This document shows, one piece after another, positions 1-32,289 of a DNA stretch of 64,000 bases. Positions within the stretch are counted from its first letter, which is position 1, and each line of letters begins with the position of its first letter. The notes under the pieces were generated by a model, which did no database searches, had not been told where the DNA came from, and was given only the letters and a program-made list of their open reading frames with translations. Source of the DNA: Spheniscus humboldti (taxonomy: Eukaryota); assembly GCA_027474245.1 (NCBI GenBank), contig CM049899.1, positions 1,212,536 through 1,276,535 on the forward strand, given 5' to 3'. The translations under genes were made by a program, and so were the position numbers.

Positions 1-2511
1 AGTGACACCACCTCCACTGTTCTTCCTCCAAGGAAGACTGAGCAAGGGATGTGTGGACTTCTGAAAGTCAGTCTAGATTATTATTATTATTGTATCATGC
101 ACCAATTATTAAGCATTTGGTCAGATCTGCAGAGGATCTAGGTGACTGAAAAGTCTAAGGAACTGAAAGTTTAGGCAATAGGAAAGCTATGCTCGTTGCT
201 AGAAAATTCTGCGTAGCAGTAAGCCACCCTGATTCCCATAGTCCTTCTAGAATAAAGCAGCTCTAAGTATAACTACAACCCTGTGGCCAGTTCTCATTCT
301 ACCAAGGAGCCTTAACATCAAGAGCCCGGCTGTCCCCATAGCAGCAGGTAGTGTCAGGTGACACAGGTGTCGGAAAGAAACTTTTATAGGCCATATGTGA
401 TGCTGGCTAATTTAAAATATCTCCACATAAAGAAAAACTCACCCATCCTGCATGTGATTCAGAACCAAATCCTCCATCTGAGCTCATACAGGCAAAAAAC
501 CAAATCCTACTGCTTTCCCCACATCAAGAGCTTCCAGTTTTCCCTGCAAGGCAGAATAGCAACTAATGCACTGTATATCCTAACCAAGCTCACTACTGCA
601 GAAGCTTCAGTAGTGCTAATGAGAAGAATCTGTACTTGTACAAGCGATGATATAGGCCTTACCAGAAGTGCCAAGATTGCTGCAGCGCTGAGGGAGAACC
701 TTGTAGCTGTTTCTCCTAGAACGTAGGGGGGTAGGGGATGAAATAAGTAGGTTGTTTTTTTTTAACAACAAAAATAAATTCAAATCACCATTGAAAATAT
801 GGAACAAAATGCTACAACCCCAGGTTTTACATCGAACAGAAAATAACCTAACTAAAAAGTGCCCCTGTACTGCTTCCTTTTCCATCCCACTGATAATTTC
901 CTCAATAATTGACAAGTGCACATTACAACTCCAGTGGTCTGTTTACTGCACATAAAAGAAAACAACTCCTTTTCAGCTGGTGTACATATCCAAATAAACT
1001 CAAATAGTGTAACTTGCAAAGAGCTATGTCAGCTTAAACTTTATCTGTAGTGCCCTACTGGATAACTGCAGAGCTGCGGATGCTCAGAAATACTGGGGCA
1101 CAACTCTTGGCCTGCCTGCAATGTTCCTGGCTCTCTCAGCTATCTGGGCAGAAGTAGAAACTATTCTTGGTTTTAGAGCAAGACTGACTAGAGTTCAAAT
1201 TTTCTTTTGCAGACTGACACCCAGAAGCTAAACCAAAACAAGCCACACCTGCGGATGAATGACTGCTAGGCATGTCCACACCAACAGACCTCTCCCAACA
1301 CACACTTTGAGCAATTAATACCCCAAGTCAACATTTGAAGTTGAACCTGGCCACAAATTTTAAAACAATGTAATTTGGGGGTCAAACTGATGTAAGTCTT
1401 TTCTTCTTAAAAAACTCACAAACTGAAAGAAAGAAAACCACACACTCTTCTCTGCTACATTGGATATCACATTCCTTCAGTCAAGCTTTTATTGCATTTC
1501 AGAAATAGTATAACAAACCCCAACAGAAAATATCTCATCATTGCTTTTTCTCCTTAAAAAGCAACTCTGACCACCTGACTGCTCATTGCAATCAAAGGAA
1601 GATGTGACCTGACCCTTCAAGCATTCTGGATGCGTAGGTGGGACTAAACAGTGTTTGTGAATCAAGAACATGCATGCTCCTTGAGACAGGCAGGTCAAGT
1701 TTGCCACCAGGTCCCCACATCGGCATTTGCTAACACTGTTCAGCTTCGGGTACAACTGAGCTGCGTTCAGTTAACGTGAAAGCATCTCCTAGTAACAGCC
1801 AGTATCAACCCAAGAACTATAACGTAAATGGAAGAAAACTCAAACTGTGCCCCCTTCTCCTTACGCTGGGTTAGGATTTGTGACAGGAATTTGATTCCAC
1901 AGTTTGGAAAAGCTCCACGGTTGCAGCCAAAAGGATCTGGAGCTTCCTGGGTCTCAGAGTAATTCTAGAGCTAAAGTAGTGATAGGCATCAACTTTAGAT
2001 CAGATAATACATGCCAACACTCATCACTGACCCAAGGCGGCAACCTCCTCCTGTCCTACCCAAGGGTTTAAAATGCAACACACTTTCTTCCTAAAACAGG
2101 ACACTACCTTATTTATTTGTAACACCATTGACAAATTTCTTCCTTGAGATGGGACTAGGGATACATTACACAAGCAGTCAAGCCACTGGTTGGAAGCATT
2201 GGAGCCTTTTCGGTACTGTTTTATCACCACGGTTGGCATGAGAAGGAAAATGAAGGACACGAGAGATGGTGAGACATTTAATCTACAATGGAGATAGCTA
2301 TGGTGAACAAGTAAGGCTGAGACCAAGTCCTTTTTCTCAGGGGAAAAGTACACACCAACTAAATAACTGCTGAACAGACCAGTATAATTTAAAGTTATAC
2401 AGGAAAAAAGATTTGAGGAACACAACATAAGAACTGACTACCGCAACACTTCTTTTGTATAGTACTAAAGTGGAAACACACTACACAAGTGTATGTACTG
2501 CATATATATTT

Positions 2512-2535
2512 TATATAGACATTAATGTCTATATA
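2512..2535. repeat. Perfect 24-bp AT-rich palindrome tatatagacattaatgtctatata in an AT-rich (TA)n context (one per unit)
   Basis: The reverse complement equals the sequence itself. It is followed at 2541-2553 by a direct repeat of atatagacatta. Confidence 0.9.
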
Positions 2536-28600: not shown

Positions 28601-31600
28601 CTTTTCAGCTGGTGTACATATCCAAATAAACTCAAATAGTGTAACTTGCAAAGAGCTATGTCAGCTTAAACTTTATCTGTAGTGCCCTACTGGATAACTG
28701 CAGAGCTGCGGATGCTCAGAAATACTGGGGCACAACTCTTGGCCTGCCTGCAATGTTCCTGGCTCTCTCAGCTATCTGGGCAGAAGTAGAAACTATTCTT
28801 GGTTTTAGAGCAAGACTGACTAGAGTTCAAATTTTCTTTTGCAGACTGACACCCAGAAGCTAAACCAAAACAAGCCACACCTGCGGATGAATGACTGCTA
28901 GGCATGTCCACACCAACAGACCTCTCCCAACACACACTTTGAGCAATTAATACCCCAAGTCAACATTTGAAGTTGAACCTGGCCACAAATTTTAAAACAA
29001 TGTAATTTGGGGGTCAAACTGATGTAAGTCTTTTCTTCTTAAAAAACTCACAAACTGAAAGAAAGAAAACCACACACTCTTCTCTGCTACATTGGATATC
29101 ACATTCCTTCAGTCAAGCTTTTATTGCATTTCAGAAATAGTATAACAAACCCCAACAGAAAATATCTCATCATTGCTTTTTCTCCTTAAAAAGCAACTCT
29201 GACCACCTGACTGCTCATTGCAATCAAAGGAAGATGTGACCTGACCCTTCAAGCATTCTGGATGCGTAGGTGGGACTAAACAGTGTTTGTGAATCAAGAA
29301 CATGCATGCTCCTTGAGACAGGCAGGTCAAGTTTGCCACCAGGTCCCCACATCGGCATTTGCTAACACTGTTCAGCTTCGGGTACAACTGAGCTGCGTTC
29401 AGTTAACGTGAAAGCATCTCCTAGTAACAGCCAGTATCAACCCAAGAACTATAACGTAAATGGAAGAAAACTCAAACTGTGCCCCCTTCTCCTTACGCTG
29501 GGTTAGGATTTGTGACAGGAATTTGATTCCACAGTTTGGAAAAGCTCCACGGTTGCAGCCAAAAGGATCTGGAGCTTCCTGGGTCTCAGAGTAATTCTAG
29601 AGCTAAAGTAGTGATAGGCATCAACTTTAGATCAGATAATACATGCCAACACTCATCACTGACCCAAGGCGGCAACCTCCTCCTGTCCTACCCAAGGGTT
29701 TAAAATGCAACACACTTTCTTCCTAAAACAGGACACTACCTTATTTATTTGTAACACCATTGACAAATTTCTTCCTTGAGATGGGACTAGGGATACATTA
29801 CACAAGCAGTCAAGCCACTGGTTGGAAGCATTGGAGCCTTTTCGGTACTGTTTTATCACCACGGTTGGCATGAGAAGGAAAATGAAGGACACGAGAGATG
29901 GTGAGACATTTAATCTACAATGGAGATAGCTATGGTGAACAAGTAAGGCTGAGACCAAGTCCTTTTTCTCAGGGGAAAAGTACACACCAACTAAATAACT
30001 GCTGAACAGACCAGTATAATTTAAAGTTATACAGGAAAAAAGATTTGAGGAACACAACATAAGAACTGACTACCGCAACACTTCTTTTGTATAGTACTAA
30101 AGTGGAAACACACTACACAAGTGTATGTACTGCATATATATTTTATATAGACATTAATGTCTATATATATTTATATAGACATTATGTATTATAATAGTCA
30201 TATATTTCTGTGCATATAAACACCTATAAAATCCAAACCTTTACTCTTCCTCTGGCCATACACATCTTTCACGTCAATGTACACCAAGAAGAATTCATAA
30301 AATCCAAAAGTAATTATCTACAAGATTCCACTAAAACCTGTAGCTAAGAAATATTTCGGAGAGACCGCCACAAAATTCATGAAGAATGCAGACAAAAATC
30401 ACCAGCAAAGGAACATTAAAAGCACAATGTTCCCAAATCTGAATATATATACACACATTTTTTTGGAGATGAATCCTTAAGTTTTGCCCGTTAGATTATT
30501 TTTTAATAATCTACTGAAATAGTTTTTGCCACTGGTATCAAACAGCACCTGGTTCCCAAGTCTCCAATCATCAAGATCATTAATTGCAAGTAGTTGTTTC
30601 TACAATTACCCTGTTACATTTACCTGGACATGCTGAGGGTTGACAGCAGACAAGAATTGTGACCTGTGCTGGCACTTACTGCACCACTTCTGTACCGACA
30701 TGATCAGATGAATGCCAGAATTTCATCTGTCTTCATTCGGTGCAGCCATCCCATGAGATCCATCGCTGTCCGCCCCCAGGAAACACTGCTCATCCTCAAA
30801 TACTCCGACAGACTGCACCCCTAAGCAGGGCATTATTTTAGTTCTGAATCAGGTAAGCACAGCATCGAAGCAGAGCAATGAAAATGCCTTAGTTAACATT
30901 TACAAAGTTTGCAGCACACCAGGTGTTTTCCATCCCATTAACAACTTAGGACATACTCACCACTCTTGCATATTACGTGCTTTACGCGTGTCTGTGCATA
31001 CGTACTGGCACATGTGCATGCATACCCCTACACTACTACATTTCTTTCCTCCCCTCTACTTTCTAGCACAGAGGTATCAAGCTCAATGTCAAGTTAAACA
31101 CATGCAAGCAGTAAGGCACCAATTCACGTCAGACCATCAGATATTATCTTGGCATCCAAGCTAACACGCACATCACCACCCCGAGTCTCAAAAATAACAA
31201 GACTAACGTTTCATGAAACTTACTGTCAAGTGCCAGAGCTGCCACAATCTGAAGCGGCACTACGAAGGGAATTCTCATGTGCATCTCTCTCTCTCTTCCC
31301 CCCGCCCCCCACTACTGTTTACCTACACTACCCGTAAACATCATTTTCCTGATGCAGTACTTTAACCCACATGTTTTCAGCACAGCAACAACAATCATAA
31401 GCAATAGTGCCTCCAGTTCTTTTGGGGACACTAAAAATAATGCAACTTTTTTTTCCCCCTCCAGACACCAGCGGTTATTGACGTTTCCCACCTCCTGGAA
31501 CCAGAATCCAGTTGTTGTGGGCTACCTCTGGTAACCCACACCTATAAAACCAATGCTAGCTGCACCATTTATCAAGGCGAGCAAGCAAGAAGCAGTGCTG

Positions 31601-32289
31601 TGGCCAGATTCAGTACAGTGTCCTATCAAGGGAGCCATGTGGAAGTACAGCTACAATCTCCCTGTAGATAAAGGAGCAGCAAGAAGGTCGCTTCCCAGGT
31701 CTCAGAGTAATTCTAGAGCAAAACCAAATCATCTTCAGATTTATGCTCAGATAATACATGCCAACACCCATCACAGACCCAGGGGAACTAACAAAGCAGC
31801 CCCCTTTGTACCTCACAGGGGACAGCAGGGCAGGAGAGGAGCAGCTGGGGAGCACACACCCAACCTCTAACTCTCAACAAGGGAGTGAGGGTTGTTACTC
31901 TTAATAAAAGCACAGCTGCGCTGAAATAAGCCCATACTTACACAGTCGCCTTTCCTTGTCCCATACAAAGCTATATGGGCCATGTGTTTCTCCAAAAGTA
32001 ATATGCTTGGCCATCAGGTTTTCTCACCGCGTCCTGTCACGGTGTCACCTTCAAAAAGCACCAACAAAGTGTCAGTTGTGGTGTCAGCTCAGGCGCTTTC
32101 CGTGCCCGAGGGTAATTCGGGCAACTCACCAGCAGTAAGTGCCCGTTTGGACATAGACCTTTCTCCATCCACCCTGACCACGGGGCAGACTTCCCGCCTC
32201 GCTTCCCGGTCTGACGAAACCTCCCCGCGGAAAGGCCTCTAAGAAAACCTCCTGCCGAGGCTGAGGCGAACCACCAGCTCGCCGCTGAC

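Follow-up and report, generated by a model that had tools for sequence, protein, structure and literature searches.

The 64-kb stretch of DNA that we analysed (hereafter, the window) carries a tandem array at its left end, followed by a CpG island and an intact ACADM paralogue, with the functional orientation of all three on the minus strand (Table 1). The 20-mer offset spectrum of the window shows a single dominant peak at 6908 (24,895 k-mers), and in an ungapped self-comparison at this offset each 500-bp bin from position 1 to 25074 is 100% or 99.8% identical, after which identity falls to random; the array therefore extends over 1–31982, with 4.63 head-to-tail units and no indels between copies. 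This agrees with the first-pass annotation, which had described at least 4.6 near-identical copies of a 6.9-kb unit and had regarded this number as a minimum, as it must be, since the array begins at or before base 1; the count is that of the assembly. The extreme homogeneity and the macrosatellite-scale tandem arrangement are real. Just five phases vary across the whole array (754, 3096, 3234, 3672 and 4937), with 0–3 differences between any two copies and none between copies 1 and 2 over 6908 bp, so that the homogeneity reported earlier stands while the figure of about five differing sites per unit does not. Variants are common to neighbouring copies in a nested pattern; four of the five are CpG transitions and two adjoin homopolymers.

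The unit has a GC content of 0.433 and a CpG o/e of 0.31, and contains no ORF longer than 134 aa, none intact, and no Pfam domain above cut-off. Each unit bears the perfect palindrome (24 nt, at 23237–23260) and the CR1 fragment (a 56-bp match to a CR1 3' end, at 26157–26212) noted previously. The earlier characterisation as AT-rich and not obviously coding holds in that no ORF is intact, but it overlooked a gene-derived unit with two RNA genes: on its minus strand, the unit reads as the 5' part of a truncated, unprocessed RABGGTB duplicate, not anonymous satellite DNA. It is colinear with RABGGTB as found intact in little penguin and parrot, in the order exon A, t2, exon B, t1, exon D, exon E and intron E–F, where t1 and t2 are SNORD45 genes, and it combines this exon-intron colinearity with disabling lesions, including an LTR in exon A of the internal units. 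All eight splice dinucleotides are intact across the surviving pseudo-exons A, B, D and E. Exon C, expected between t1 and pseudo-exon D, is deleted at about 29148, and no RABGGTB exons F–H were found anywhere in the 64-kb window. The array boundary at 31982 falls within pseudo-exon A, which is unbroken in the promoter-proximal copy only, and the unit junction lies near 26011/26012 (phase ~5287), at the end of a tail whose larger insertion holds the CR1 fragment.

Table 1 Features of the array and its surroundings (window coordinates).
Feature	Position	Strand	Other copies	Details
Tandem array	1–31982	− (functional orientation of unit)		Period 6908; 4.63 copies; left end cut by window start
Solo LTR, 536 bp (TGTCC...ACAAGA)	25076–25611	+	4352–4887, 11260–11795, 18168–18703	Within pseudo-exon A, antisense to host; TSD GCCAC
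CpG-island-edge duplicate	25612–26011	−	4888–5287, 11796–12195, 18704–19103	Head of each internal unit; phase 4888–5287; o/e 0.54
Unit tail	26012–28071	−		~330 bp from RABGGTB intron E–F plus insertions of ~450 bp and ~1.28 kb
Pseudo-exon E	28072–28202	−	At −6908n	2-bp insertion, 12-bp deletion; splice sites kept
Pseudo-exon D	28295–28348	−	At −6908n	Splice sites kept
SNORD45 t1	29580–29664	−	1948–2032, 8856–8940, 15764–15848, 22672–22756 (identical)	Intron between pseudo-exons B and D; Rfam 68.3 bits
Pseudo-exon B	30621–30820	−	23713–23912, 16805–17004, 9897–10096, 2989–3188 (−6908n)	aa ~39–105; in-frame TGA 30704–30706; 1-bp deletion; both splice sites kept
SNORD45 t2	31696–31779	−	4064–4147, 10972–11055, 17880–17963, 24788–24871 (identical)	Intron after pseudo-exon A; Rfam 56.5 bits
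Pseudo-exon A	31942–32054	−		aa ~1–38 of bird RABGGTB; AG and GTAAGT splice sites kept; 1-bp deletion
CpG island, RABGGTB-promoter homologue	32000–32900	−		GC 0.55–0.78; CpG o/e 0.64–0.99
Intact ACADM paralogue (ACADM-like)	35585–47131	−		12 coding exons; own CpG island ~46–47.5 kb
Sister solo LTR	52168–52757			87% identical to array LTR; TSD AATAC

Minus-strand matches to the SNORD45 covariance model (Rfam RF00279, curated gathering cut-off 42 bits) number ten in the window, two per unit, representing five copies each of t1 and t2. All four boxes of t1 are canonical (C GUGAUGA, D' CUGA, C' UGAUG, D CUGA) and its terminal stem has 5 bp; t2 has the same guides, but its C box (GUGAUGG) is a variant and its C' is weak. 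Across nine sequences the terminal stem is 100% paired, with two pairs altered on both sides. SNORD45 is a box C/D snoRNA guiding 2'-O-methylation of 18S rRNA at A159 and U172. When paired with an 18S rRNA fragment, the guides form perfect duplexes of 16 nt and 11 nt that place the fifth nucleotide upstream of D/D' opposite A159 and U172. These predicted targets agree with A158 and U171, the targets of the chicken homologue GGgCD5, which is located in RABGGTB introns (PMC2653536). Each unit thus contains two SNORD45 genes that are intact by sequence and are predicted guides for 18S A159 and U172. A point against a host role is that over 1 kb separates both from the 3' splice site that follows, although the spacing is the same in intact bird RABGGTB; for mammalian intronic C/D snoRNAs the optimal distance is ~70–80 nt.

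The CpG island at 32.0–32.9 kb, previously termed an orphan, is instead a conserved RABGGTB-type promoter island, and a putative promoter of a non-coding host transcript; a homologous island with CpG o/e of 0.83–0.96 is present at the pseudogene locus in all four species examined. A methylated CpG island would decay, and persistence over at least 60 My would not be expected; since its CpG o/e persists, the island has probably not been methylated over that time. The first-pass annotation correctly recognised that a GC-rich segment of ~400 bp in the unit is paralogous to the island edge: phase 4888–5087 matches 31979–32178 at 96.5%, with weaker matching, in part rearranged, out to phase ~5287. 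Internal duplicates of the island have decayed to o/e values of 0.41–0.57, leaving a single CpG island, which heads the array. The internal units may be silent, because each has only a CpG-depleted promoter fragment and an exon A split by the LTR.

The neighbouring gene had been named ACADM, with its 3' end about 3 kb from the array. Its stop codon (35585–35587) lies 3.6 kb past the array end, and while it does belong to the ACADM family, it is an ancient paralogue (NCBI ACADM-like) and not the ACADM of the SLC44A5–ACADM–RABGGTB–MSH4 locus. That other locus, (SLC44A5–)ACADM–RABGGTB(–MSH4), was observed in little penguin, two parrots and sparrow with an intact RABGGTB encoding a 331-aa product; in little penguin and Amazona guildingii the next gene is MSH4. 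In a neighbour-joining (NJ) tree from 3448 ungapped ACADM columns, the window, the ACADM-like genes of king penguin and stork, and falcon form one group and little penguin, parrots and sparrow the other, with a bootstrap of 1.0. We infer that the window locus is an ancient ACADM–RABGGTB paralogue, duplicated before the waterbird/landbird split; an intact RABGGTB locus in the window species itself is presumed from another penguin, the little penguin.

Taken together, these observations suggest, with a probability of roughly 0.65, that the array arose when the 5' part of a truncated RABGGTB duplicate, long since without protein-coding function but surviving as a non-coding SNORD45 host, was recently amplified in tandem. 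Comparisons between loci point to the following history. Before the waterbird/landbird split, ACADM would have been copied to another site together with the RABGGTB promoter and exons A–E, after which the RABGGTB exons would have decayed, with the CpG-island promoter, the splice sites and, above all, t1 being retained. The segment from the promoter edge to intron E–F would then have been duplicated in tandem, its copies evolving in concert since. In the portions of the locus available, king penguin and stork each have at least two units with the same junction, and inter-unit identities of 95.3% and 92.6%, respectively.

After the split from king penguin, pseudo-exon A of one internal unit would have received an ERV insertion, which was then reduced to a solo LTR. 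The same site is empty in the last copy and at the king penguin and stork loci, and the TSD is clean, at 5 bp. The LTR is present in four units of the window and absent from the last, promoter-proximal copy, so the earlier report of a solo LTR in every copy applies to the four LTR-bearing units only. Unequal crossing-over or gene conversion could have spread the LTR-bearing unit to at least four copies, and the same spread would have overwritten the promoter-proximal copy as far as the insertion site and no further. Precisely there, the last copy goes from 99.93% to 96.5% identity with the internal units. The LTR ends in TG...GA in the array and in CG...CA in its sister copy. The array had been described as far more homogeneous than solo LTRs of ~10% divergence; this is upheld by the LTR pair at 87% identity, but the other pair, of 0.8 kb at 54.8 and 58.5 kb and 90% identical, consists of CR1 3' ends and not LTRs.

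One could instead suppose that the true locus has one or two units and that the assembler over-expanded a repeat loop. The complete identity of copies 1 and 2, the array running off the window, the two variants beside homopolymers and the appearance of units by ones or twos in the available king penguin and stork portions are all compatible with such an artefact. Nevertheless, we regard it as unlikely. The array copies appear to be real because four of the five inter-copy differences are CpG transitions, which, nested in adjacent copies, bear the signature of mutation and not of error; in addition, exon A occurs both with the LTR, flanked by its clean TSD, and without it, and at least two units with the same junction were assembled independently in related genomes.

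The macrosatellite-like architecture proposed in the first-pass annotation is apt for size, arrangement and homogeneity, and the array shares with D4Z4, DXZ4 and RS447 a kilobase-scale unit, tandem order and high inter-copy identity; its copy number is likely to vary. A generic vertebrate macrosatellite, that is, a structural or epigenetic, copy-number-polymorphic non-genic array in which TE fragments and the GC patch are incidental, would also accommodate the CpG-depleted unit and the CpG-transition differences, which suggest germline methylation. This explanation is improbable, however, since the unit follows the layout of a known gene and has two conserved RNA genes inside, with a snoRNA as the sole strongly conserved element across at least 60 My. 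Unlike D4Z4/DXZ4-type arrays, which are GC/CpG-rich with an ORF or promoter per unit, the array here has an AT-rich, CpG-poor unit (GC 43%) made of gene introns and exons, has no intact ORF, and has an RNA gene as its conserved content.

The comparison with related birds, proposed earlier, identified the same paralogous locus in king penguin, stork, falcon and manakin, with t1 as by far its best-conserved element. When the window is compared with falcon, the most similar 85-nt stretch coincides exactly with t1 at 96.5% identity, compared to 84.7% for the next and a mean of 64%. The window, king penguin, stork and falcon share the same t1 boxes and guides; in manakin the guides are again identical and the terminal stem carries a compensatory change from U-A to C-G. 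Over six species the guides are 100% conserved, against flanks at 65–80% identity. Conservation is not universal, as t1 at the paralogous (pseudogene) locus of snowfinch is rearranged, with a D box of GUGA, and stork t2, like snowfinch t1, has box or guide changes. At the true locus, the C box of parrot t1 is lost and Rfam misses this copy, penguin t1, with D' CUGC, reaches 50.6 bits, and in sparrow t2 the C box is GCGAUGA, the D box is UUGA and the guides contain mismatches, indicating that the SNORD45 copies inside intact RABGGTB are apparently decaying in several birds. A wholly dead relic, in which pseudogene, island and both snoRNAs are non-functional, conservation reflects slow decay or chance and the segment was amplified neutrally, would suit the plainly decayed exons, the altered stork and snowfinch snoRNAs and the island-less internal units, but has little to recommend it given that t1 is an extreme outlier in its conservation and its stem carries a compensatory change, that its guides outlast their flanks, that a methylated island would not have lasted and that the decaying copies are those in intact RABGGTB.

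If the truncated duplicate does serve as a SNORD45 host, RNA polymerase II would start at the 32.0–32.9 kb CpG island and transcribe the minus strand, the pseudo-exons would be spliced and SNORD45 would be released from the introns. Transcription may continue across the internal units, in which case all 10 or more snoRNA genes would be expressed. Such a host would share with the RABGGTB genes carrying SNORD45 (U45A/B/C; chicken GGgCD5) the Rfam family, both guides and the intron positions after exons A and B. It differs in being a truncated non-coding duplicate beside an ACADM paralogue, with its unit tandemly repeated, and in several birds the intact-gene copies look worse than the pseudogene copy.

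Arrays of host exons and an intron with a C/D snoRNA, repeated head-to-tail, are also known from SNORD116, SNORD115 and SNORD113/114, whose snoRNAs are imprinted orphans specific to therians; in our case, transcription across the units is putative. In contrast to the SNORD115/116 type, the snoRNA is a canonical rRNA guide and not an orphan, as both guides match 18S, and the 6.9-kb unit combines two snoRNAs with four exon remnants in at least 4.6 units. A study of chicken snoRNAs reports no orthologues of the imprinted snoRNAs (PMC2653536). Similarly, hosts of the GAS5/SNHG family, including a gas5-like host in chicken (PMC2653536), have exons without coding capacity (with splicing putative in our case), and selection seemingly acts on their intronic snoRNAs, splice sites and promoter. 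Unlike in those hosts, protein-coding ancestry here is readable exon by exon, and the host stems from a truncated duplicate of a housekeeping gene that relatives retain in intact form.

The pair of loci resembles duplication-degeneration-complementation, with the intact locus keeping the RABGGTB protein and losing t1, and the pseudogene locus keeping t1 and losing the protein; it departs from that scheme in that the partition, judged here by sequence conservation alone, would be between a protein and an intron-encoded RNA. While amplification of the unit may well be neutral, selection appears to maintain the intronic snoRNAs, the splice sites and the promoter, not the sequence of the exons.

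The array proved to be built from a decayed part of a known gene. By tblastn with bird RABGGTB protein, and by nucleotide alignment to the intact genes of the little penguin (locus L005) and a parrot (L003), we found its unit to be colinear with the 5′ part of RABGGTB, retaining remnants of exons A, B, D and E (of exons A–H) that are 71–88% identical to the true gene. Along the unit, the order is exon A, one copy of the box C/D snoRNA gene SNORD45 (t2), exon B, a second SNORD45 copy (t1), exons D and E, and then ~330 bp of intron E–F carrying two insertions. The pseudo-exons contain an in-frame TGA (30704–30706) and indels of 1, 2 and 12 bp; exon C is deleted, and the window contains no exons F–H. 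The four exons that remain have kept every splice dinucleotide (8/8), an outcome with a chance probability near 0.01 at ~25% neutral divergence by our own arithmetic. Judged by its sequence, the locus is a member of the SNORD45 family together with an unprocessed RABGGTB pseudogene.

RABGGTB pseudo-exons in the array copy next to the CpG island
Feature	Position	Strand	Basis
Pseudo-exon A	32054-31942	minus	RABGGTB alignment
Pseudo-exon B	30820-30621	minus	RABGGTB alignment
Pseudo-exon D	28348-28295	minus	RABGGTB alignment
Pseudo-exon E	28202-28072	minus	RABGGTB alignment

The tandem array described in the first-pass annotation, with its 6.9-kb unit, was confirmed by a 20-mer offset spectrum of the whole window, in which an offset of 6908 gave a single overwhelming peak (24,895 k-mers), and by an ungapped self-comparison at this shift, in which identity was 100% or 99.8% in all 500-bp bins from 1 to 25074 and random after. 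The array thus covers 1–31982 and holds 4.63 units without indels, a copy number that is a minimum, as the array is cut by the window start. The homogeneity claimed earlier also held, but the figure of about five differing sites per unit did not, the copies being tighter: only five phases, or positions within the unit, vary in the whole array (754, 3096, 3234, 3672 and 4937), any pair of copies differs at 0–3 sites, and between copies 1 and 2 there is no difference. CpG transitions account for four of the five variable sites, and neighbouring copies have variants in common (T,T,C,C,C and G,G,A,A,G at two of the sites), a pattern that resembles genuine mutation of methylated DNA more than errors of assembly; we infer that the assembled copy number is correct. 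The unit has a GC content of 43% and a CpG o/e of 0.31, with ORFs of 134 aa or less and no Pfam match above cut-off. The perfect AT-rich palindrome noted previously is present as the 24-nt sequence TATATAGACATTAATGTCTATATA at 23237–23260, repeated at −6908n; it sits in the intron between pseudo-exon B and t1, without evident function.

Searches of the window with Rfam returned ten SNORD45 matches, all on the minus strand and two per unit, with scores of 68.3 bits for t1 and 56.5 bits for t2 against a gathering score of 42 bits, whereas nothing credible from other RNA families was found in the full unit and CpG island, even at relaxed thresholds. SNORD45 is a snoRNA hosted in RABGGTB introns. 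The t1 boxes are canonical (C GUGAUGA, D′ CUGA, C′ UGAUG, D CUGA), with a terminal stem of 5 bp, and t2 has GUGAUGG as its C box and a weaker C′ box. Both copies have the same two guides, which form perfect duplexes of 16 nt (13 nt in t2) and 11 nt with the 18S segment GGUAAUUCUAGAGCUAAUACAUGCC; opposite the fifth nucleotide upstream of D and D′ lie 18S A159 and U172. These predicted targets agree with those published for the chicken homologue GGgCD5 (18S A158 and U171), which has two copies, in RABGGTB introns 1 and 2 (PMC2653536). In their boxes, stem and guides, the SNORD45 copies of the array look functional.

Next to the array, the GC-rich block at 32.0–32.9 kb is a true CpG island (o/e 0.64–0.99), which had been described as an orphan; its homologue is the island that precedes intact RABGGTB, and hence it is not orphan. 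An intact ACADM-type gene (ATG at 47131, stop at 35585) is found upstream of the array and on its strand, and ACADM followed by RABGGTB is the ancestral gene order. In the little penguin (L005, L006), two parrots (L003, L008) and the house sparrow (L009), ACADM precedes an intact RABGGTB of 331 aa; this is the true locus, flanked by SLC44A5 upstream in Amazona ochrocephala and by MSH4 downstream in the little penguin and Amazona guildingii. An additional ACADM-like gene is present in the king penguin (L004, an unplaced 472-kb contig) and the oriental stork (L007, the 1.76-Mb chromosome record CM067939.1), with the same decayed RABGGTB exons and SNORD45 copies on its 3′ side as in the window, and loci of this kind, with exons even more decayed, occur in falcon (L001, L002) and manakin (L010, the 0.70-Mb chromosome record CM020565.1). 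A neighbour-joining tree of 3448 ungapped nucleotide columns from the 3′ half of ACADM splits the window, king penguin-like, stork-like and falcon sequences from those of the little penguin, parrots and sparrow with a bootstrap of 1.0, so the duplication of ACADM and the 5′ part of RABGGTB predates the Aequornithes/Australaves split; K2P distances from the window are 0.025 for king penguin, 0.074 for stork and 0.163 for falcon. This tree replaced a neighbour-joining protein tree of ACADM, including tblastn-derived exon sets, that was noisy and misleading; it suggested a strong difference between parrot and window ACADM, whereas the protein P0003, at 96% identity, lies at the true locus.

The records carrying the ACADM-like gene and pseudo-RABGGTB are very small or unplaced in stork, manakin and king penguin, and the falcon pseudo-locus (L001) lies inside a large 122-Mb chromosome, which suggests a location on a dot microchromosome, fused in falcons. 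In the NCBI models of the king penguin and stork ACADM-like genes (X1 isoforms P0006 and P0241), the intron separating coding exons 3 and 4 is read through; the same read-through in the window (44166–44454) is out of frame, leaving the frame open only with canonical splicing. The pheasant "ACADM" (L011, protein P0054), which may be either paralogue, is only 87% identical to the window protein, below the 91% of lizard ACADM, and is followed downstream by an ankyrin-repeat gene, with no RABGGTB or SNORD45 within 10 kb downstream.

Within the alignable pseudogene region, the best-conserved 85-nt stretch between the window and falcon is exactly t1 (96.5%), the next reaching 84.7% and the mean being 64%; a sliding 60-bp identity scan against stork was uninformative at a divergence of only ~15%, and the falcon comparison was used instead. 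No box or guide of t1 differs among the window, king penguin, stork and falcon; the manakin copy has the same guides too, along with a compensatory U-A to C-G change in its terminal stem. Pairing of this stem is preserved in 9/9 sequences tested, two of its pairs having changed on both sides. The CpG island preceding pseudo-exon A is kept in 4/4 pseudo-loci examined, with the same o/e (0.83–0.96) as at true loci and, given that CpG decays in methylated DNA, this retention indicates that the island is unmethylated in the germline.

SNORD45 is eroding at the true loci (parrots, L003 12355–12450 and L008 28287–28380; sparrow, L009 27886–27970 and 29682–29780; little penguin, L005 12404–12488). 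The t1 sequence that distinguishes the pseudo-locus is UAUCUGAUCUAAAGUUGAUGCC, against UGUUAUCUGCUCU... at the true locus. Parrot t1, its C box lost, escapes detection by Rfam, and the U172 guide of parrot t2 carries two mismatches. In the little penguin, t1 has CUGC as its D′ box, a guide mismatch and an internal duplication, scoring 50.6 bits, while sparrow t1 has no C box and sparrow t2 has GCGAUGA as C, UUGA as D and guide mismatches. The stork t2 at the pseudo-locus is also eroding. In the snowfinch, where the region is rearranged, a t1-type SNORD45 lies inverted upstream of the ACADM-like gene (L012 5429–5510, minus strand), with both guides intact, a GGGAUGA C box as in manakin and a GUGA D box; a second, partial copy is found nearby (L012 6714–6733, minus strand). 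The simplest reading is one of reciprocal retention, in which the intact gene would keep the protein and the truncated duplicate, acting as a non-coding host of SNORD45, would keep t1 along with the promoter and splice sites, so that protein and intronic RNA appear to be kept at two paralogous loci. We infer that t1, and in the window lineage t2, are expressed from the pseudo-locus.

The unit extends from inside the CpG island (~32330) to RABGGTB intron E–F, and near phase 5287 intron E–F sequence is joined to a ~400-bp CpG-island fragment. The comparison with related birds that had been proposed for the array bears it out, as king penguin and stork each assemble at least two units with the same junction, at periods of 4532 and 4567, respectively. 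The two unit copies are 92.6% identical in stork and 95.3% in king penguin, closer within each species than the stork–penguin divergence here, which points to concerted evolution. In both birds, 1.84 kb with t2 and exon B is missing from the promoter-proximal copy (L004 25382/25398; L007 26863/26877), and the same loss is apparent in falcon (L001 22857–23297), judged by spacing only; the promoter-proximal copy of the window is full length.

A 536-bp solo LTR lies inside pseudo-exon A, antisense to the host and with a 5-bp TSD (GCCAC), in all four LTR-bearing units seen, and the empty site is kept in the last, promoter-proximal copy and in king penguin and stork. Between this last copy and the internal units, identity is 99.93% as far as the LTR insertion point and 96.5% beyond it, a drop expected if unequal crossing-over or gene conversion homogenises the array and is stopped by the 536-bp heterology. 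Copies differ at only 0–3 sites per 6.9 kb, chiefly hypermutable CpGs, so the latest round of amplification or homogenisation was very recent, by a rough estimate of the order of 10^5 years ago or less. The LTR was excluded as promoter of the snoRNA host, its TATA-like box and ATTAAA signal reading along the plus strand, opposite to the host. The family has another solo LTR (87% identical) at 52168–52757 with its own 5-bp TSD (AATAC), and just upstream of it, the stretch 51000–52150 is GC-rich, with a strong positive GC skew of 0.27, long overlapping ORFs on both strands and 96% conservation with king penguin. Two 90%-identical 0.8-kb repeats (54814–55628 and 58478–59314), considered as ERV LTRs, were rejected as such and are CR1 LINE 3′ ends with (ATGATTCT)n octamer tails; the ORF between them (57007–58560) encodes a CR1 reverse transcriptase (Pfam RVT_1, E = 4e-31). 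The GC-rich region upstream of the ACADM-like gene holds a (CCTTC)40 microsatellite together with minisatellites of 41 and 50 bp (61888–62089 and 60095–60355).

Imprinted mammalian loci are known to contain tandem arrays of host units that carry orphan snoRNAs; the array resembles these clusters in architecture, but its snoRNA is a canonical rRNA guide, and the putative host would work like the non-coding snoRNA hosts of GAS5/SNHG type. The first-pass reading of a macrosatellite-like array of an AT-rich, not obviously coding unit stands for size and arrangement, which are those of a macrosatellite, and fails for the composition and per-unit-gene features of D4Z4 and DXZ4. The unit is RABGGTB-derived, with two SNORD45 genes. 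In a chicken survey, most snoRNAs proved to be singletons and none was found to be orthologous to the imprinted, tandemly repeated snoRNAs of mammals (PMC2653536), and our literature search found no paper on this locus, on ACADM/RABGGTB paralogy in birds or on a tandemly amplified SNORD45 host. In kind, the array would be a tandemly amplified, pseudogene-derived snoRNA host.

For its expression, we propose that the CpG island would drive a spliced non-coding host transcript and that internal units would be transcribed by read-through. The amplification may be neutral. A stronger proposal, to which we give about one chance in five, is that the array is a bird counterpart of SNORD115/116, in which one CpG-island promoter would produce a long, repetitively spliced transcript co-expressing at least ten SNORD45 copies, and a copy-number-polymorphic array length would set SNORD45 dosage and possibly 18S Am159/Um172 methylation.

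An anonymous "macrosatellite" thereby becomes an interpretable locus and a clear case of a protein-coding duplicate that is predicted here to have become a non-coding host of snoRNAs and that has persisted for at least 60 My, relevant to snoRNA and pseudogene evolution and to assemblies of bird microchromosomes, in which such arrays risk collapse and the pseudo-locus can readily be mistaken for "ACADM / intergenic" in annotation. Should the array be transcribed, its varying copy number would provide a natural series in which to study the effect, if any, of snoRNA gene dosage on rRNA methylation. If the SNORD115/116-like proposal is true then, with SNORD45 decaying in intact RABGGTB, the functional home of an essential snoRNA would have moved to a pseudogene in Neoaves.
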